From assembly GCA_021796115.1 (NCBI GenBank), contig JAJYOP010000001.1, forward strand, positions 119,755-183,754: 64,000 nt of DNA. Direction: 5' to 3'. The notes beneath the pieces were generated by a model that saw only the letters and a list, made by a program, of their open reading frames with translations, was not told where the DNA came from and ran no database searches. The stretch comes from a bacterium (GTDB lineage Bacteria; Omnitrophota; Gorgyraeia; Duberdicusellales; 4484-171). Position numbers and translations under genes: made by a program. This document shows positions 10,900 through 56,835 of the stretch, in pieces (the first letter of the stretch is position 1; each line of letters starts with the position of its first letter).

Positions 10900-11271
10900 T
10901 TGATGATCGAAAGGCGCAAGTTTGATAGAGTATTTAAATCATCAATTGTGAGATTTAGATTTTTTAAAAGCCACCTCGGCATGTCTTCCCGTTGCGAGAA
11001 CATTTGTGAGGAAGGTATGCGCTTGGTTGCTCTCCAAAGGCTCTCACCCGGCATGATGCTTAATCTAAATTTCCAATTGGAAGAATTAGGCCCGCCAATT
11101 TTAGCTTCCGCCAAAGTGATATGGCAAAACAACAGGGATAATATTTACTATCCCTTTGCGGTAGGATTAAAATTCACCAAAATAAGTTCTGCCGACCGCG
11201 AAAGAATCGCTAGTTACATAAAAACAGCAAGCAGAGAAAACCCTTCTAATGCCCCTAAAGTCGTCCGTTAA
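10900..11271 (+). CDS. Stand-alone PilZ domain protein
   Basis: RRKFDR (RxxxR) near the N-terminus and a NICEEG variant of D/NxSxxG. Confidence 0.65.
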   Translation: MMIERRKFDRVFKSSIVRFRFFKSHLGMSSRCENICEEGMRLVALQRLSPGMMLNLNFQLEELGPPILASAKVIWQNNRDNIYYPFAVGLKFTKISSADRERIASYIKTASRENPSNAPKVVR

Positions 11272-11692: not shown

Positions 11693-11715
11693 AAATTTCT
11701 CCCAGGGAAAAATTT
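11693..11715. promoter_or_regulatory. 23-bp palindrome AAATTTCTCCC-A-GGGAAAAATTT (candidate operator)
   Basis: One mismatch between the half sites. Centred ~60 nt upstream of the inferred riboswitch transcription start. A related site lies at 12911-12931. Confidence 0.5.
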
Positions 11716-11727
11716 AGGAAAGTAGCC

Positions 11728-11758
11728 TTGCAATCTTGTTAAATATATGTTATACAAT
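11728..11758 (+). promoter_or_regulatory. Sigma70-like promoter of riboswitch cassette 1
   Basis: TTGCAA-N17-TATACAAT. A 32-nt block AATCTTGTTAAATATATGTTATACAATAAATG is identical at 52039-52070. Confidence 0.6.
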
Positions 11759-11789
11759 AAATGGTAAGGTAGTTCTTCAAAATTTATAG

Positions 11790-11937
11790 GAAAAAAGCTA
11801 ATCCTGAGAAACCAGGTGGCGCAACCCACGAACCAGAACATAGTTCGATTCGGTGGGTTGCCCGGCACCGAATTTATTCTGGTGCTGGGCAAAGCTTAAA
11901 GAGCCTAAAGCCGTAAGGCTATGGTAGTCAGCTGCCG
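11790..11937 (+). promoter_or_regulatory. GEMM-I-like cyclic-dinucleotide riboswitch aptamer, copy 1 (carries a ~66-nt insertion)
   Basis: AGCTAATCC..GAAA..GGCGCAA[insert]AAGCTTAAAGAGCCTAAAGCCGTAAGGCTATGGTAGTCAGCTGCCG resembles the Vc2 core GGCAAACC..GAAA..GGGACGCAAAGCC..GGCCTAAACC..CCGGTAGGTAGCGGGG. Confidence 0.65.
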
Positions 11938-11954
11938 TAAAATACAGAATGTTT

Positions 11955-11986
11955 AAAGCCCATAGTTTTGACTATGGGCTTTTTTG
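11955..11986 (+). terminator. Intrinsic terminator (riboswitch expression platform)
   Basis: AAAGCCCATAG-loop-CTATGGGCTTT followed by a T-run. Confidence 0.85.
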
Positions 11987-12129
11987 TTTGAGCAGGCAAT
12001 CTATGCTTGCTCTTACCGCAAGCGCAGGAGTTTGCATCCGGACCTAATCCCTTTTGCCAGAATTCTACGGGCTTTGTCCGTGCGGGTTCCAGGTTTTCAA
12101 AAATTGGCAAACTCCAGAAAATTTTACTT

Positions 12130-12158
12130 TTGATAACAAAGAAAAATTGTAATACAAT
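12130..12158 (+). promoter_or_regulatory. Sigma70-like promoter proximal to pilin 1
   Basis: TTGATA-N17-TACAAT, 25 nt upstream of the GGAGGG Shine-Dalgarno. Confidence 0.55.
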
Positions 12159-12182
12159 ATTACTATAAAAAGGAGGGTAGTA

Positions 12183-12548
12183 ATGAGAAATAAAAAAGGT
12201 TTTACGCTTATCGAATTAGTCATGGTTATTGTTATCCTGGGTATTTTGGCAGTAGTGGCCGCACCAAAGTATTTTAACCTTTCAGCATCCGCCAACCAGG
12301 CAGCAGAACAGGGTGTAGTGGGCGGAGTAAGGTCCGGTATCTCGAGTTATTTTGCGCAGAATAAAGCTTATCCTCTAACCCTGGACGCAGCTCTACCTGT
12401 TGCCTGTAGTACAGCAAACGCATGTTTTACAAACGTTCTCTCGCAGGGCGGTATCACTTCCCAATGGACAAAGGTTAGTAATACCCTTTATAGAGGGCCG
12501 ACTGGTACATCATACACTTATACTGTCGCAGATGGCTCGTTTCAATAA
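12183..12548 (+). CDS. Type IV pilin (paralog 1, canonical Gly at -1)
   Basis: Prepilin leader MRNKKG|FTLIELVMVIVILGILA with Glu+5; Cys-x6-Cys pair in the C-terminal part. Confidence 0.85.
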   Translation: MRNKKGFTLIELVMVIVILGILAVVAAPKYFNLSASANQAAEQGVVGGVRSGISSYFAQNKAYPLTLDAALPVACSTANACFTNVLSQGGITSQWTKVSNTLYRGPTGTSYTYTVADGSFQ

Positions 12549-13098: not shown

Positions 13099-14769
13099 AT
13101 GGCAGGCAGTTTAGAAATTTTAGATTTGTTATTAAAAGAAGGTTTAATAACTTCGGAACAGATTGAAAAGGCAAAAATAGAGACCAAACGTACCGGCCTA
13201 AGCATAGAGAGGGCTCTGGAAAAGTTAGGTTTTATTACCGAGGAAGATATCGTAAGGACACGGGCAAACGCACTGGGGATACCCTATATGGATTTGGAGA
13301 GCTGCCAAATTGACCCCAATATTATAAAACTAATTCCTGAAAGCATCGCCAGAAAATATAAAATCCTTCCTCTTTTTAAAATCGGCAACAGTCTTAATGT
13401 GGCGATGGTTAATCCCTCTGACATAGTTGCCATGGATCAGATACGAAGATTGATATCCAGCGGAGGGAACCTTGAGGTGATATTAGTAAGCCAAAAAAGC
13501 TTAGAGAAAGTTTTGGATGATTGTTTCGATACGAGCGGCGCAACCGCGAAGATACTTGAATCAATAGATAAGTCCGCCGGAAAAATAAAACAAACAGGGC
13601 TGATAGAAAGCGCCGATGAGGCGCCAGTCATAAAATTGGTCGACTCATTAATCGCCGAAGCAGTAAAAAACAGGGCTTCGGATATTCACATCGAGCCTGA
13701 ACAGGCAAATGTGCGGGTACGTTTCCGCATTGACGGAGCACTGCAAGAGATAAATTTCCTTCCTAAATCACTTCAGGATAATGTAGTGTCACGCATCAAA
13801 GTTTTATCCAAGATGGATATTGCGGAAACCCGCAGCCCGCAGGATGGCAGTATCAATATGAAGCTGGAAAACCGGGAATTAGATATCCGCGTTTCCACCT
13901 TTCCTACTATTTACGGAGAAAATGTCGTGATGCGGCTTTTAGACAAAACTTCGGTTTTGTTCGGGCTTAAGGACCTTGGGCTTTCAGAAGAGACTCTCAA
14001 CCAGTTTAATAAGCTTATCCGCCGGCCAAACGGAATAATCCTGGTTACCGGACCAACCGGCAGCGGAAAAACTACTACTCTATACGCGGCGCTTACCAGC
14101 ATCAGTTCCATGGAAAAGAATATTATTACCATCGAGGATCCGGTTGAATACGAGCTGCCTTTGATTCGGCAAACTCCCGTTAATACCAAAGCGGGGATTA
14201 CCTTTGCTAACGGCTTGCGCAGTATCCTCAGACAGGATCCGGATATTATTATGGTGGGAGAAATTCGTGACAAGGAGACTGTGGAAATAGCTATACAGGC
14301 CTCGCTTACGGGCCATCTTGTGTTTTCCACCCTGCATACCAATGATGCCGCTTCGGCGCTCACGCGTTTAATCGATATTGGCGTTGAGCCATTTTTAGTC
14401 TCAAGTTCCATCGTCGGCATTCTTGCTCAGCGTTTAGTGCGCCTGATTTGCCCAAAGTGCAAGGAGGCCTATACTCCTAGCAGCGATATTCTTGAGGAGC
14501 TTGGTCTTTCCAAACAGGAAGAATATTTACACGGTAAAGGTTGCCCAGTTTGCAAAAAAACCGGCTTTTTTGGCAGAGTGGGCATATTTGAATTGCTGGT
14601 TATCAATGAGGATATCCGTAAAATGATAGAGGCAAAAAGTTCTGCGGATGAGATAAAAAAAAGGGTCATCTCCCTCGGGATGACTACATTACGCCAGGAT
14701 GGCATTAATAAAATAAAACAGGGATTAACCACCGCCGAAGAGGTTGTTAAGGTAACAGAAATAGAATAG
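13099..14769 (+). CDS. pilB: Type IV pilus assembly ATPase (GspE/PilB/MshE family)
   Basis: N-terminal T2SSE_N-like repeats, Walker A GPTGSGKTTT, Asp/His boxes, tetracysteine CPKC...CPVC. Confidence 0.9.
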   Translation: MAGSLEILDLLLKEGLITSEQIEKAKIETKRTGLSIERALEKLGFITEEDIVRTRANALGIPYMDLESCQIDPNIIKLIPESIARKYKILPLFKIGNSLNVAMVNPSDIVAMDQIRRLISSGGNLEVILVSQKSLEKVLDDCFDTSGATAKILESIDKSAGKIKQTGLIESADEAPVIKLVDSLIAEAVKNRASDIHIEPEQANVRVRFRIDGALQEINFLPKSLQDNVVSRIKVLSKMDIAETRSPQDGSINMKLENRELDIRVSTFPTIYGENVVMRLLDKTSVLFGLKDLGLSEETLNQFNKLIRRPNGIILVTGPTGSGKTTTLYAALTSISSMEKNIITIEDPVEYELPLIRQTPVNTKAGITFANGLRSILRQDPDIIMVGEIRDKETVEIAIQASLTGHLVFSTLHTNDAASALTRLIDIGVEPFLVSSSIVGILAQRLVRLICPKCKEAYTPSSDILEELGLSKQEEYLHGKGCPVCKKTGFFGRVGIFELLVINEDIRKMIEAKSSADEIKKRVISLGMTTLRQDGINKIKQGLTTAEEVVKVTEIE

Positions 14770-16079: not shown

Positions 16080-16448
16080 ATGAGAAAGAAAAAAAGTTTT
16101 ACGCTTATCGAGTTAGTCATGGTTATTGTTATCCTGGGTATTTTAGCAATAGTGGCCGTACCAAAATATATTGATCTTTCAGGCCAAGCCAATCAGGCAG
16201 CAGAGCAGGGTGTTTTGGGCGGAGTCAGGTCCGGTATATCGACGTATTTTGCGCAGTTTAAAGCTTATCCAGCAACCTTGGATTCAGTTCCAATTCTTAC
16301 TTCCTGTAGTACCGCAAATCCATGTTTTACAAACGTTCTCTCGCAGGGCGGTGTTACTTCCCAATGGACAAAGACTAGTAATACCCTTTATAGAGGGCCG
16401 ACTGGTACATCATACACTTATAACTCTGCAGCTGGGACATTCCAATAA
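16080..16448 (+). CDS. Type IV pilin (paralog 2, Ser at -1)
   Basis: MRKKKS|FTLIELVMVIVILGILA; highly similar to 12183 and 16717. Confidence 0.8.
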   Translation: MRKKKSFTLIELVMVIVILGILAIVAVPKYIDLSGQANQAAEQGVLGGVRSGISTYFAQFKAYPATLDSVPILTSCSTANPCFTNVLSQGGVTSQWTKTSNTLYRGPTGTSYTYNSAAGTFQ

Positions 16449-42441: not shown

Positions 42442-42514
42442 GCCCAGGTAGCTCAGTTGGTAGAGCTCCTCACTTGTAATGAGGGGGTCGAAGGTTCGAG
42501 TCCTTTCCTGGGCT
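42442..42514 (+). tRNA. tRNA-Thr (TGT)
   Basis: Acceptor GCCCAGG/CCTGGGC, anticodon loop CTTGTAA, T-loop TTCGAGT. Confidence 0.9.
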
Positions 42515-42683
42515 TTGTGTACGAAAATGTTAGCAGATGAAAATCGCAGATGGTCACAGATGAGAAATTCCAATAACCAATTTCTAAATTACAAACAAAT
42601 TCCAATATTCAATGATTCAAATTCCAAACCCAAAGCGTTCGGAACATTGGCCTTTTGGTCATTGAAATTTATTTGAAATTTGT

Positions 42684-42735
42684 CCTTCGACTTTGCTCAG
42701 GACACCCTTGAGCGAGTGAAAACGAGTCGAAGGGT
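42684..42735. repeat. CCTTCGACT...AGTCGAAGG element, copy 2
   Basis: Shares the 14-mer TTCGACTTTGCTCA and the 11-mer AGTCGAAGGGT with 7001-7062. Confidence 0.55.
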
Positions 42736-42763
42736 TGGTGTTTGGAGCTTGAGATTTGATAAT

Positions 42764-42804
42764 ATCTGTATTAATCTGTGGTTTGTTGTCTGTGCTGATC
42801 TATG
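42764..42804 (+). promoter_or_regulatory. ATCTGTG box array (degenerate, 4 boxes) directly upstream of tRNA-Tyr
   Basis: ATCTGTA-N3-ATCTGTG-N7-GTCTGTG-N3-ATCTATG. A possible promoter TTGGTG-N17-GATAAT lies at 42735-42763. Confidence 0.5.
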
Positions 42805-42810
42805 AAAATT

Positions 42811-42893
42811 GGGCAGGTTCCTGAGCGGCCAAAAGGGACAGACTGTAAATCTGTTGTGCTTGCACTTCGGAGGTTCAAATCCTCCCCTGCCCA
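42811..42893 (+). tRNA. tRNA-Tyr (GTA)
   Basis: Class II tRNA with long variable arm, acceptor GGGCAGG/CCTGCCC, anticodon loop CTGTAAA. Confidence 0.88.
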
Positions 42894-42998
42894 TTCTTCT
42901 TCGCCCGACACTAATTGAAACCGCAGGTCGGGCCTCGAAGGAATAGTTCCTGCGAAGCCCGACCGGCGATTACCTTGCGAATAGCGAAGCAGAACATT
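42894..42998 (+). repeat. Conserved tRNA 3' trailer element, copy 1
   Basis: Starts TTCTTCTTCGCCCG immediately after the discriminator base. Homologous to 56836-56968, which follows tRNA-Ala. Confidence 0.65.
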
Positions 42999-43030
42999 TT
43001 CTTAAAAAGGATAAACGAAACTAAGATGAC

Positions 43031-43101
43031 GCGGGCGTAGTTCAATGGCAGAACACTAGCCTTCCAAGCTGGATATGTCGGTTCGATCCCGATCGCCCGC
43101 T
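43031..43101 (+). tRNA. tRNA-Gly (TCC)
   Basis: Acceptor GCGGGCG/CGCCCGC, anticodon loop CTTCCAA, T-loop TTCGATC. Confidence 0.88.
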
Positions 43102-43199
43102 TACTGAGACTTGCAATCTTTCAGACAGGAAGTCTGAAAAATTGCCTAGTCGAAATACCCCCGAGCGACCGAAGGGAGCGAGTGGGGTAATAAATAAAC

Positions 43200-44204
43200 A
43201 TGAAACAAAAGATTTCCATACTCGGTGCCGGCGGTTGGGGGACTACTTTAGCCGTTGTTCTTTCCGGTAAAAAAAATCTAGAGACAACATTATGGTCGGC
43301 ATTTCCCGAACAAGTCGAGCAAATTATTAAAGAAAGAGAAAACAAAGATTTTCTTCCTTCCGTAAAAATACCAAAAAACTTGAAAATTACCTCTAGCCTC
43401 AAATCAGTGCTGTCTGCAAATATAATTATTTTAGCAATACCTGCCGAACATCTGCGAAGCTGTCTTGTTAATATTAATGTGGCAGGAGTTGATTTTAAAA
43501 ACAAGCTTTTTTTAAGTGTGATTAAAGGAATAGAAATAAAAAGCCTGAAGCGACCGAGCGAAATATTACACGAAATGCTTAATTTACCTTATGAACAGAT
43601 AGTAGTTCTCTCCGGCCCGACAATTGCTAAAGAGGTAGCGCAAGGTATACCTGCAGTTGCAACGGTTGCCTCCAATTCGTACGCCAACGCACAAAAAATC
43701 CAAAAAATATTCGAATCAACAAATCTTCGGCTTTATACCCATAAAGATATGATTGGTATAGAAACAGCCGGCGCGCTAAAAAATATTATCGCTATTGCCT
43801 GCGGTATTTCCGATGGCCTTGGTTTTGGAACAAATACTAAATCAGCAATAATTTGCCGCGGTTTAAAAGAGATGATGCGTTTCGGCAGAGCTCTGCATAT
43901 AAACGAATCAGCATTTTTAGGGATAAGCGGAATAGGGGATTTATGCACAACATGTTTTTCTAACTTCTCAAGAAATAGATTTATCGGCAAACAAATTGCT
44001 TCAGGCAAAGCACTCAATGAAGTATTAAAAAATATGAAAATGGTTGCTGAAGGCGTGACGACGGTGAAGTCCGTTTATAACATAACTAAAAAATATAAAA
44101 TAGATATGCCGATAACTAAAGAGATATATCTTATTCTTTATAAAAATAAATCTCCCAAAATAGCAGTTAAGGATTTGATGGGCCGCCCATTGAAGGATGA
44201 ATAG
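43200..44204 (+). CDS. gpsA: NAD(P)H-dependent glycerol-3-phosphate dehydrogenase
   Basis: ISILGAGGWGTTLA, GALKNIIAIA and GDLxxTC motifs. Confidence 0.92.
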   Translation: MKQKISILGAGGWGTTLAVVLSGKKNLETTLWSAFPEQVEQIIKERENKDFLPSVKIPKNLKITSSLKSVLSANIIILAIPAEHLRSCLVNINVAGVDFKNKLFLSVIKGIEIKSLKRPSEILHEMLNLPYEQIVVLSGPTIAKEVAQGIPAVATVASNSYANAQKIQKIFESTNLRLYTHKDMIGIETAGALKNIIAIACGISDGLGFGTNTKSAIICRGLKEMMRFGRALHINESAFLGISGIGDLCTTCFSNFSRNRFIGKQIASGKALNEVLKNMKMVAEGVTTVKSVYNITKKYKIDMPITKEIYLILYKNKSPKIAVKDLMGRPLKDE

Positions 44205-44228
44205 CCAACCAATTAAAGGAGGGTTAAT

Positions 44229-44711
44229 ATGAAAAGGTTATTTTCGTTTCTCTTATGTCTTTTGTTTGTTGTTACAATTTCAGGCTGTGAAAGTAATAAA
44301 ACTAGGGTAGCTGAGGGCGCAGTAATTGGAGGGCTTGTGGGAGGTGCTGCTGGCGGGATCATCGGACATCAAAGCGGACATGCCGGAGTTGGCGCAGGTA
44401 TCGGTATAGCTGCAGGGGCGCTCACGGGTGCCTTAATCGGTAGCCAAATAAATAAGCCACAAACCCAACAGCAGCCCCAAGCTACTAACCAATCCGTTCA
44501 AAATACACAAGTACAACAACCAGCCGTTCAAGGTGGCCAGCTTTCGATAGATCAAATAGTTCAGCTGCATAAACAGGGAATAAGTGATGACGAAATTATT
44601 GCTAAGATTCACAGTACGAATTCAAAATTTGCCCTTTCAACCGAAGGTGTTAATTATCTAAAACAACAGGGATTGAGTCAAAAGGTTATTGACTCCATGC
44701 AAAGTAAATAA
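44229..44711 (+). CDS. Glycine-zipper lipoprotein
   Basis: Lipobox ISGC, GGxxGGxxGG glycine zipper, Gln-rich linker. Confidence 0.6.
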   Translation: MKRLFSFLLCLLFVVTISGCESNKTRVAEGAVIGGLVGGAAGGIIGHQSGHAGVGAGIGIAAGALTGALIGSQINKPQTQQQPQATNQSVQNTQVQQPAVQGGQLSIDQIVQLHKQGISDDEIIAKIHSTNSKFALSTEGVNYLKQQGLSQKVIDSMQSK

Positions 44712-44720
44712 TATTTCCGG

Positions 44721-44747
44721 CAGGGAACGGTTTTAAAACGTTCCCTG
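44721..44747 (+). terminator. Hairpin CAGGGAACG-loop-CGTTCCCTG
   Basis: Same stem sequence as 8133-8158. Confidence 0.6.
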
Positions 44748-44805
44748 CACTCGATAGTTACTTGCCTAAGGCGCAAAGTGTGATAAAATTAAAATAAAAT
44801 AAGCT

Positions 44806-45141
44806 ATGAATAATATAGATTGGCAAGGTTTTAGCAGTAGATTTTCCGGATATTTAAACGAACTAACAAGTTTCAATTTTCATATATCCAACCCGGTATT
44901 CTGGCTCTTCTTCTGCATACTTTTCTTAGTGCTATTAAAATTATGGACGGCAAAAAAAGCTTTTTCTTTTTGTGCTGTAATCGCTTTGATTTTGCTGGCA
45001 TCAACTAAAATCGAAGCCAATATTTTAAGTTTTTTTAGCCGGGGCGGAGAATCATTTGATGGCGTAATTATAAGGATAGTTACAATGGTAATTATTTGCA
45101 TAGTAATATTGTATTATTCTTGCATAAAAAGCAATTATTGA
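44806..45141 (+). CDS. Hypothetical membrane protein
   Basis: Three predicted TM helices; no family recognised. Confidence 0.45.
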   Translation: MNNIDWQGFSSRFSGYLNELTSFNFHISNPVFWLFFCILFLVLLKLWTAKKAFSFCAVIALILLASTKIEANILSFFSRGGESFDGVIIRIVTMVIICIVILYYSCIKSNY

Positions 45142-45375
45142 TTGATAAATGTAAACTTTTTCTTCCTTGATCGCCTTCCAATTCTTGCTTTACAGCCTAA
45201 AAAAAGCCTAGTATAATAACACAAATTAAGCCAGTCAGGTTTATTTAAGGTAACAATTCTTTAATTATTTTGCTTCCCCGGAACCACTACGGGGTGACAG
45301 CTAGCCAAGAAAAAGCTTCTCTGAAACACTTCGAGGCGAGCATCATATAAGGGGCAGAGCCCCTATGACTTTTAC

Positions 45376-45451
45376 CGGGGGATAGCGCAGTCCGGATTAG
45401 CGCACTTGAATGGGGTTCAAGAGGCCGTGGGTTCAATTCCCACTCCCCCGA
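45376..45451 (+). tRNA. tRNA-Pro (GGG)
   Basis: Acceptor CGGGGGA/TCCCCCG, anticodon loop ATGGGGT, T-loop TTCAATT. Confidence 0.85.
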
Positions 45452-49829: not shown

Positions 49830-49898
49830 GATTCACAGATGATCACACCTGTTCTTGCGGCAGTCAGGGATAGAAAATCATGAGATGCCACAGATACA

Positions 49899-49926
49899 TT
49901 GATTTTCTCTAAGAGGATAATATAAT
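49899..49926 (+). promoter_or_regulatory. Sigma70-like promoter upstream of recJ
   Basis: TTGATT-N16-TATAAT. It places the ATCTGTG array at about +1 to +40 of the transcript. Confidence 0.55.
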
Positions 49927-49932
49927 AAAAAT

Positions 49933-49973
49933 ATCTGTTACTATCCGGGTCTGTTAATCTGTGGTTATCTGCG
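49933..49973 (+). promoter_or_regulatory. ATCTGTG box array (4 boxes, partly degenerate) upstream of recJ
   Basis: ATCTGTT-N3-ATCCGGG-N7-ATCTGTG-N3-ATCTGCG. Inverted CACAGAT boxes lie at 49834, 49844 and 49889. Confidence 0.55.
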
Positions 49974-51864: not shown

Positions 51865-51928
51865 ATTTATTACTCCTTTTATACACAGATAGTCAGAGAT
51901 GTGGAAGCGGATAATCACAGATGATTTT

Positions 51929-51968
51929 ATCTGTGATTATCTGTGATCTTTATCTGTGGCCATCTGTG
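51929..51968 (+). promoter_or_regulatory. ATCTGTG box array (4 exact boxes)
   Basis: Exact boxes at 51929, 51939, 51952 and 51962. Inverted CACAGAT boxes lie at 51884 and 51916. The perfect hairpin ATAATCACAGAT-GATTTT-ATCTGTGATTAT spans 51911-51940. Confidence 0.6.
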
Positions 51969-52065: not shown

Positions 52066-52097
52066 AAATGACAAACCAGTTCTTTAAAATTTATACG

Positions 52098-52176
52098 AAA
52101 AAAGCTAACCTTGGGAAATCAGGGGGCGCAAAGCTTAAAGAGCCTAAAGCCATAAGGCTATGGTAGTCAGCTGCCG
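52098..52176 (+). promoter_or_regulatory. GEMM-I-like cyclic-dinucleotide riboswitch aptamer, copy 2 (compact)
   Basis: AAAAGCTAACCTTGGGAAATCAGGGGGCGCAAAGCTTAAAGAGCCTAAAGCCATAAGGCTATGGTAGTCAGCTGCCG aligns by eye with the Vibrio cholerae Vc2 core. Confidence 0.75.
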
Positions 52177-52195
52177 TTATTTTATTTGAAAGGTT

Positions 52196-52226
52196 AAACC
52201 CATAGCTTGTAGCTATGGGTTTTTTA
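52196..52226 (+). terminator. Intrinsic terminator (riboswitch expression platform)
   Basis: AAACCCATAGC-loop-GCTATGGGTTT followed by a T-run. Confidence 0.85.
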
Positions 52227-52360: not shown

Positions 52361-52696
52361 ATGTTAAGGAAAGCCGTGGGTTTACTTATTGTGTGTTTAA
52401 TGGTTATGTCAGTGAGCGCATTTGCCGAAGACAATAATGCGCTTGCTAAATTGGGCAGAGGGTTAACCAATGCCGTGACAGGAGTAGTAGAAATTCCAAA
52501 GCAAATTTATCTTGTTTCGCAGGAGAAAGAACCCATCACAGGCATTACTTATGGCACAGCCAAAGGTATATGCTATGGGTTAATGCGTACGGCAGCCGGA
52601 GTTTATGACACCCTTGCTTTCGCAATCCCTCCTTATGATAAACCGGTTATGGAGCCTGCATTTGTGTTTGAAGGATGGCAGGCGGAGAAAAAGTAA
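52361..52696 (+). CDS. Small secreted protein resembling the exosortase-system-associated TIGR04073 family
   Basis: Start moved to the ATG 5 nt after the Shine-Dalgarno. Signal peptide; KLGRGLTNAVTGVVEIPKQIY, GTAKGICYGLMRTAAGVYDTLAF, EPAFVF. Confidence 0.6.
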   Translation: MLRKAVGLLIVCLMVMSVSAFAEDNNALAKLGRGLTNAVTGVVEIPKQIYLVSQEKEPITGITYGTAKGICYGLMRTAAGVYDTLAFAIPPYDKPVMEPAFVFEGWQAEKK

Positions 52697-56508: not shown

Positions 56509-56592
56509 TGCCGAAGGAGGGAGTTGAACCCTCATGGAGTTGCCCCCATCGGTTTTTGAGACCGACTTGTATGCCAGTTCCAACACTTCGGC
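56509..56592 (-). tRNA. tRNA-Leu (CAA)
   Basis: Class II cloverleaf folded by hand: acceptor GCCGAAG/CTTCGGC, anticodon loop CTCAAAA, long variable arm, T-arm GAGGG-TTCAACT-CCCTC. Uninterrupted. Confidence 0.88.
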
Positions 56593-56762
56593 AAAGCAAA
56601 AAGATGATAACATCCTTGATTTTCTTTGTCAATTGACAACTTCTTTGCATAATGATATGATTTCTCTCGTTGTTCGTTCACTAACTTCTTAAGGCACTTC
56701 GGCGAGCGCGCCTCAGTGCCGATAAAAAATAAGGTATAACCCTAAATAATTGCTTTTTTATC

Positions 56763-56835
56763 GGGGCCGTAGTACAGTTGGGAGTACGCTTGCATGGCAT
56801 GCAAGAGGTCGGGGGTTCAAATCCCCCCGGCTCCA
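56763..56835 (+). tRNA. tRNA-Ala (GGC)
   Basis: Acceptor GGGGCCG/CGGCTCC with the G3:U70 identity pair, anticodon loop ATGGCAT. Confidence 0.85.

Follow-up and report, generated by a model that had tools for sequence, protein, structure and literature searches.

A predicted GEMM-I-type riboswitch leader with a conserved tandem-hairpin module in its binding junction, upstream of an Omnitrophota pilin gene

The closest described relatives of the RNA considered here are the GEMM-I riboswitches (Rfam RF01051, Vc2 type). In 320 of the 322 examples of the 2007 GEMM survey, the two helices (P1 and P2 in that paper, P2 and P3 here) are joined by an AAA linker; the survey also associates GEMM elements with pilus genes (PMC1950547). 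In the GEMM-Ib variants, an A at position 20 reads the adenine of 3',3'-cGAMP, and Vc2 carrying the G20A change binds both cGAMP and c-di-GMP (PMC6140456). Here we analyse a candidate relative of these elements in a 64,000-nt stretch of Omnitrophota DNA (the window). We put at about 0.6 the probability that positions 11783-11985 form a working GEMM-I-type cyclic-dinucleotide riboswitch leader with an accessory or tolerated four-way-junction module. As far as its sequence can tell, this element (winA) is a GEMM-I-derived leader, and what is new in it is a conserved tandem-hairpin module in the predicted binding junction, found in four Omnitrophota lineages. In the literature that we searched, we found no description of GEMM-I junction inserts or of Omnitrophota riboswitches.

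When the sequence is read directly, the GEMM-I blocks listed in the first-pass annotation of this DNA are all found where it placed them (Table 1). They span 148 nt, compared with about 87 nt in a normal aptamer, a difference on which the annotation did not remark, and a degenerate pattern joining the P2 and P3 blocks across the gap matches once in the window and not at all in 100 shuffles. Helix P2 has its GNRA tetraloop, internal loop and closing pairs G21-C46 and C22-G45, with two of the six stem pairs non-canonical; helix P3 has its tetraloop receptor, where CCTAAAGCC...GGCTATGG (11904-11924) fits RF01051 and is invariant in the 12 homologous leaders described below. P2 and P3 are not joined directly: the AAA itself is kept (11891-11893), with 68 nt (11822-11889) placed just 5' of C46 and A47, that is, between G45 and C46 of the last two P2 closing pairs and directly 5' of the AAA linker. 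Given the AAA of 320 of the 322 surveyed examples (PMC1950547), a 68-nt element at the linker is therefore unusual. Both this tandem-hairpin insert inside the ligand-binding junction and the A at position 20 were overlooked in the annotation. The insert site and position 20 are given in Vc2 numbering; A47 and the counting of positions follow what we take to be the Vc2 sequence. The numbers of G20 and C92 are confirmed in PMC6140456.

The annotation had made its GEMM-I assignment depend on a significant RF01051 match, and here the element comes close to failing. At Rfam gathering thresholds, the whole window gives a single RF01051 match, at 52093-52178 (65.5 bits), and none over 11790-11937; a relaxed scan of 11700-12200 gives 32.1 bits (E 1.6e-4) against a gathering cut-off of 35 and covers only the 3' half (11871-11939, the receptor helix and tail). 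The match is halved because the insert splits the element, as can be seen in the pairwise alignment with the 65.5-bit paralog. The GEMM-I homology as such is borne out by that paralog (winB, called copy B below; 52089-52225, with the insert-free aptamer portion at 52089-52184) and by Omnitrophota orthologs scoring 60-76 bits. Between the element and copy B, the promoter, the 5' core AAAAAAGCTAA, P2, P3 and the tail all align, and the type of terminator is shared; the 16-nt linker ahead of the terminator is poorly conserved. The main difference is a single gap-free insertion in the element, the 68 nt in question, and 11890-11937 is the same as in copy B except for one loop base. A score of 68.6 bits from a lineage model (R1) is discounted for the element, as the insert-stripped element was in the training set and the 3' arm of hairpin H2 was mis-assigned as a P2 arm.

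Table 1. Coordinates of the element, its parts and related features. Positions are those of the window unless a locus handle precedes them.
Feature	Position	Strand	Basis or remark
Upstream promoter: -35 TTGCAA 11728-11733, 17-nt spacer ending TG, -10 TATACA 11751-11756, overlapping TACAAT 11753-11758	11728-11758	+	read from sequence
P1 5' strand TTTATAGG, weak, and A-rich J1/2 linker	11783-11796	+	alignment to copy B and RF01051 consensus
Block AGCTAATCC	11796-11804	+	read from sequence
P2	11797-11821	+	alignment to copy B, 12-leader covariation
P2 closing GC, then UAA bulge, 5' arm TCCTGA (11802-11807)	11797-11798 (closing GC)	+	
GAAA loop (P2 tetraloop)	11808-11811	+	read from sequence
P2 3' arm CCAGGT, then GGC, then G11821 (= G45)	11812-11817 (3' arm)	+	
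Block GGCGCAA	11818-11824	+	read from sequence
Hairpin H1 (CAACCCAC...GTGGGTTG, inner GAAC/GTTC stem)	11822-11860	+	gap versus copy B, fold, homologous hairpins in L093, L105 and L120
Hairpin H2 (CCCGGCACC...GGTGCTGGG, inner GAA/TTC stem, bulged U)	11861-11889	+	fold, covariation
C46 and AAA linker (A47 equivalent 11891), P3 with receptor (CCTAAA / TATGG), then AGCTGCCG	11890-11937	+	RF01051 partial match, alignment to copy B
Block AAGC	11892-11895	+	read from sequence
Block GCCTAAAGCC	11903-11912	+	read from sequence
Block GGTAG	11923-11927	+	read from sequence
Block AGCTGCCG	11930-11937	+	read from sequence
P1 3' strand CGTAAAAT...	11936-11945	+	family alignment; pairing weak in the element
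Intrinsic terminator: 12-bp stem 11955-11982, T-run (TTTTTT) to 11985	11955-11985	+	consensus scan
Second promoter TTGATA-N17-TACAAT, before pilin gene	12130-12158	+	consensus scan, 10/12 consensus matches
MSHA-type pilin, paralog 1 (121 aa, N_methyl domain)	12183-12548	+	
Copy B: canonical GEMM-I aptamer (52093-52178) and same-type terminator	52089-52225	+	RF01051 65.5 bits, alignment to the element
TIGR04073-family gene (exosortase-associated), downstream of copy B	52361-52696	+	protein names from source records
Two-hairpin insert 5' of G20	L114 1243-1302		GGTA repeat on flanks
P3-tip extension, 41 nt	L125 1331-1371		
GEMM-I-like near MshE ATPase	L047 8968-9056	-	MAG labelled Armatimonadota
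GEMM-I-like near MshE ATPase	L048 8954-9042	-	MAG labelled Candidatus Tepidifontimicrobium
GEMM-I-like near MshE ATPase	L064 8549-8641	+	MAG labelled Mycobacteriales

Candidatus Omnitrophota MAGs contain the nearest relatives of the MshEN/T2SSE ATPase encoded beside the pilin gene, at 74% identity or less. When JGI metagenomes were scanned with a degenerate pattern, nine loci came out, eight of which are chance matches within unrelated sequence; two such scans of viral contigs returned none. The one real locus, L093, has a well-formed GEMM-I aptamer whose position 20 is G and whose 6-bp P2 is perfect, together with an insert like that of the element, and it sits before a TIGR04073-family gene that is the ortholog of the gene behind copy B. 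From the pattern scan and the contigs of TIGR04073-protein homologs, 12 distinct homologous leaders can be gathered, the element and copy B included. The element most likely belongs to a small Candidatus Omnitrophota riboswitch clade that normally precedes a TIGR04073-family gene. Six leaders are free of inserts (copy B, L094, L095, L097, L115 and L118) and four carry a two-hairpin insert between G45 and C46 (68 nt in the element, 67 in L093, 63 in L105 and 59 in L120); L114 and L125 are expanded elsewhere (Table 1). The RF01051 scores follow this anatomy: insert-free leaders reach 68-76 bits, L114 65.7 and L125 59.8, and of the insert-bearing leaders L120 scores 40.2 bits, with P2 and the insert taken as a 78-nt local gap, and L105 37.3. 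For L093 no RF01051 match is listed, only a sub-threshold match to RF03167 (39.1 bits).

The aptamer helices were examined for covariation in the 12 leaders with the inserts removed in silico, using 500 shuffles and slid-register controls. In the aptamer register, 92% of the cells pair and 12 pairs change on both sides; none of the 500 shuffles reaches the observed values, and the slid registers collapse. P2 covaries at five of its six pairs, C22-G45 switches to U-A, and the only unpaired P2 cells, a U.U and an A.C, are both in the element. P1 covaries in the family, and both window copies pair poorly in that register.

The insert is itself strongly structured. The fold of 11822-11896 has a minimum free energy of -36.6 kcal/mol (z -6.1), and every insert is much more stable than its shuffled versions (z -5 to -9). 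When H1 and H2 are each read as beginning with C and ending with G, no base is left unpaired, and P2, H1, H2 and the G21-C46 pair make up a perfect four-way junction. The inserts of L105 and L120 are of a second sequence type (TCCCGCA...TGCGGGA, then CCCGCC...GGCGGG) with the same architecture and again no linker bases. Across the seven junction-proximal pairs of each hairpin, 98% of the cells pair and 7 of the 14 pairs change on both sides (four of seven in H1 and three of seven in H2, where every cell is paired), in a comparison of only four sequences of two types, with the register set by hand and anchored at the junction. A MAFFT alignment of the four insert-bearing aptamers was dropped, with the 3' arms of H1 out of register, and junction-anchored arm constructs were used instead. 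Sequence is better conserved in the insert than in the P2 stem: between the element and L093 the insert is 83% identical, compared with 2 of 12 identical P2 stem positions, and between L105 and L120 the figures are 78% and 5 of 12. In a search for pairing of the insert with the expression platform or with other aptamer strands, nothing is consistent across the four insert-bearing sequences; L105 alone stands out, in that its H2 resembles the P3 tip. A 9-nt identity of H1 to the T-arm of the adjacent tRNA (GTTCGATTC) is taken as chance; it is not kept in L093.

The end of the insert, 11878-11892 (TCTGGTGCTGGGCAA), resembles the preceding 11811-11825 (CCAGGTGGCGCAA), and the lineage model aligned the former as the P2 3' arm. 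This likeness may be a trace of an origin by duplication.

The same data bear on where the insert came from. The double hairpin could be a selfish or slippage-generated palindrome with no role of its own, harmless through its stable self-folding and repeatedly gained and lost, and we consider this a real possibility while leaning somewhat against it. Its distribution is patchy: the L114 and L097 proteins are 92% and 88% identical to that of L093, yet neither leader has the G45-C46 insert, nor does copy B, the window's own paralog of the element. This patchiness among close relatives fits a passenger as well as it fits a functional domain. Short direct repeats flank several inserts (the 4-nt GCAA in the element and L093, GGTA in L114; none at L105 and L120), each insert is a pair of hairpins that resemble each other (that of L093 can also form one long hairpin), insert GC is 52-66% compared with 39% for the window, and expansions occur elsewhere in this aptamer, 5' of G20 in L114 and at the P3 tip in L125. 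Against a passenger stand the identical site and the zero-linker junction in two sequence types, as well as the conservation of the insert above that of the P2 stem. In a mobility test, moreover, no further copy of any insert was found in the 902 kb of collected loci, the 64-kb window included; the multiple dispersed copies with target-site duplication that mark a mobile or repetitive palindromic element are thus not seen. A passenger origin is in any case compatible with a working riboswitch.

The promoter and terminator that would frame this working riboswitch can also be compared across the family. The first-pass annotation had proposed a promoter upstream of the aptamer. Its TTGCAA-N17-TG-TATACA sequence is present, and the TTGnnn-N17-TGnTAnnnn layout is kept in all 12 leaders, 24-36 nt upstream of P1; a consensus scan does not call it, because the -10 hexamer lacks the final T. 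The other two signals that the annotation had described, a strong intrinsic terminator after the aptamer and a separate promoter ahead of the pilin gene, are both recovered by the consensus scan, the terminator as a GC-rich stem-loop (-17.3 kcal/mol) followed by a T-run. Since the second promoter lies between this terminator and the pilin gene, the switch could only raise or lower a basal level of transcription, much as the annotation had proposed.

Several further features lie in the surrounding intergenic DNA. Nearly all leaders have a conserved box, GYTCTTTAAA, after the predicted transcription start and before P1 (in the element GTTCTTCAAA, 11766-11782). The element is closely preceded by the end of a tRNA-Phe that has a terminator of its own. 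Further tRNAs are clustered at 42442-45451 (four) and 56509-56835 (two). The spacer at 11986-12135 is GC-richer than its surroundings and folds at -47.1 kcal/mol (z -3.1 versus shuffles), with no family match. The heptamer CACAGAT/ATCTGTG occurs 18 times, compared with 3.1 expected, and is clustered in intergenic DNA (74-113, 49834-49963 and 51884-51968); this includes DNA a short way ahead of the copy-B promoter and the orthologous leaders L097, L114, L115 and L118, where it stands between terminator and ribosome-binding site. From their sequence, these clusters may be a regulator binding array.

The terminator offers a candidate expression platform. Its 5' arm CCATAGTT (11960-11967) is the complement of GGCTATGG (11917-11924), the 3' strand of P3. 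Every one of the 12 leaders shows such complementarity between the terminator's 5' arm (CCCAUAGUC, CCCAUAGUU or CCCAUAGCU) and the P3 receptor strand GGCUAUGG, and the duplexes have energies of -9.8 to -13.5 kcal/mol. The 5' arm is also more conserved across leaders than the 3' arm. We tentatively read this complementarity as an OFF-switch layout. Folding calculations did not provide thermodynamic backing for an antiterminator: forcing the pairing costs +5 to +17 kcal/mol, and folds of the nascent transcript retain P3.

The unit from promoter (11728) to terminator (11985) could also be transcribed as a stand-alone structured RNA, about 220 nt long, with a role in trans and no effect in cis on the pilin gene. 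The unit is indeed complete from promoter to terminator, and it lies about 200 nt from the pilin gene, with a second promoter in between. In the orthologous leaders, however, it directly precedes the ribosome-binding site of the TIGR04073 gene, about 60 nt away in L094 and L095, which is a cis-regulatory layout, and GEMM-I elements are overwhelmingly found in a 5' regulatory configuration (PMC1950547). We therefore regard a free-standing small RNA as improbable and continue with the riboswitch leader.

The gene that this leader precedes is the first of several pilin genes, with further paralogs at 16080 and 16717. Omnitrophota relatives encode their pilins downstream of the ATPase and PilC; in the closest of them, what lies upstream is a kinase and a response regulator, with no leader. 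Comparison of the leader and its parts by BLAST with 80 Omnitrophota-type MshE ATPase loci gave no matches, and Rfam at gathering thresholds found no GEMM-I in the 15 closest MshE loci; the unit of riboswitch and first pilin gene is therefore specific to the window's lineage.

Domains known as c-di-GMP receptors flank the riboswitch, a PilZ-domain ORF upstream (10900-11271) and the MshEN-domain T2SSE ATPase downstream (13099-14769). To judge from these domains, the pilus locus seems to be coupled to cyclic dinucleotides through RNA as well as through protein. The lineage model also places canonical-looking GEMM-I elements, at 28-35 bits, in three MAGs (Table 1), no more than a few kb from MshE-type ATPase genes, and thus an association of riboswitch and pilus ATPase recurs across phyla.

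Some of these observations count against a working switch and would suit a decaying copy. On that account the element arose by duplication of a leader, and the interruption of its junction cost it ligand control; it would now be a constitutive promoter-terminator unit or inert, and the pilin gene would be transcribed from the 12130 promoter. The element falls below the Rfam cut-off (32.1 versus 35), P1 is weak, and the two non-canonical P2 pairs are absent from the other 11 leaders. The riboswitch-pilin arrangement is seen in this genome only, and the pilin gene has its own promoter, independent of the riboswitch, so that riboswitch control is dispensable. What speaks against decay is the pattern of change. 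Substitutions relative to copy B are restricted to the stems of P1, P2 and the terminator and to one P3 loop base; the unpaired core bases are all identical, and the terminator has been kept through a compensatory G:C insertion in its stem. In addition, the insert-bearing L093, L105 and L120 have perfect P1 and P2 helices and no evident alternative promoter for the gene behind them; the insert as such therefore does not inactivate the aptamer. Decay thus seems to us distinctly unlikely, and a working riboswitch leader is the reading that we carry forward.

If the leader works, its ligand is of interest. A11796 is the equivalent of Vc2 G20, and both window copies have an A there: the unpaired G before the closing GC in RF01051 aligns to an A in copy B, and A11796 follows from the alignment of the two copies. 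Both copies also have U for the first A of the GCAAA bulge. The other ten Omnitrophota leaders have G at position 20. By analogy with GEMM-Ib, A20 in the window copies suggests recognition of 3',3'-cGAMP or of both c-di-GMP and cGAMP; with the dual specificity of Vc2 G20A taken into account, the ligand would therefore be cGAMP, c-di-GMP or both. A motif scan for GGDEF, EAL and HD-GYP found none in the ORFs of the window, which is 64 kb of the genome only.

Taken together, these data allow a mechanism to be proposed. The aptamer appears to keep helix P2 with its tetraloop, helix P3 with the receptor and every conserved base of the junction, and the 68-nt module would turn the base of P2 into a linker-free four-way junction beside the ligand-intercalating A47. 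Because the module is predicted to fold on itself and so to bring its ends together, the binding pocket should still be able to assemble. The RNA would then bind a cyclic dinucleotide, with A20 suggesting 3',3'-cGAMP or dual recognition to judge from the literature. For transcripts from the 11728 promoter, binding would set the balance between termination at 11955-11985 and read-through into the pilin gene. The direction is tentatively OFF: the free aptamer would allow an antiterminator, and the ligand-locked aptamer would leave the terminator to form.

A further step would be to regard the tandem-hairpin module as an accessory domain with a function of its own. Insert-bearing GEMM-I aptamers would then form a new structural subclass, marked by a four-way junction at the ligand pocket, and the module would tune affinity, specificity, folding kinetics or partner binding; with A20 in both copies considered as well, it would be a sign of cGAMP-type signalling in the control of Omnitrophota pili. 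As a whole we find this proposal rather unlikely on sequence evidence.

The locus is of wider use in several ways. It offers a natural, evolutionarily maintained entry site for a large structured module in the core junction of the c-di-GMP-I aptamer, useful for studies of pocket assembly and for biosensor engineering. Curated covariance models miss or half-match the insert-bearing copies, and riboswitch censuses in candidate phyla therefore undercount them. The element also links predicted cyclic-dinucleotide sensing by RNA to an MSHA-type pilus locus in Omnitrophota that encodes PilZ and MshEN domains as well, and it hints that cGAMP-type recognition may not be confined to Geobacter.

Among known systems, the element is closest to GEMM-I of the Vc2 type (RF01051). 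The two share a P2 with GAAA tetraloop and internal loop, a P3 with the CCUAAA/UAUGG receptor, the ...GC...CGC-AAA-GC... junction and the GCUGCCG tail; they also share a 5' regulatory position with an intrinsic terminator and the association with pilus genes, and the insert-free paralog and orthologs score 60-76 bits with that family. Unlike RF01051, the element's clade has a tandem-hairpin module of 59-68 nt between G45 and C46 and a four-way junction at the base of P2, and the window copy falls under the gathering score and has A at position 20. With the GEMM-Ib or 3',3'-cGAMP riboswitches of Geobacter (e.g. Gs1761), both window copies share an A in place of the G that reads the first ligand base. 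The element differs from these in its phylum, in the G of the ten other Omnitrophota leaders, in that no cGAMP synthase is seen in the window, and in its proposed logic, which is tentatively OFF; the Geobacter GEMM-Ib switches are reported as ON. The families c-di-GMP-I-GGC (RF03167) and c-di-GMP-I-UAU (RF03168) belong to the same clan as the element and give weak partial matches (39.1 bits to RF03167 in L093; 16 bits to RF03168 at 11787-11866 of the window), far short of the 59 and 65.9 bits of their gathering scores. Altered binding-site bases, not an inserted domain, define those families. Finally, optional or variable inserted helices are familiar from other aptamers, such as the variable linker of ZTP and the optional P3a of TPP. 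As in those, the element tolerates a self-contained structured segment between conserved parts; unlike them, where the segment sits at a peripheral loop or an inter-domain linker, it takes that segment into the core of the predicted ligand-binding junction.
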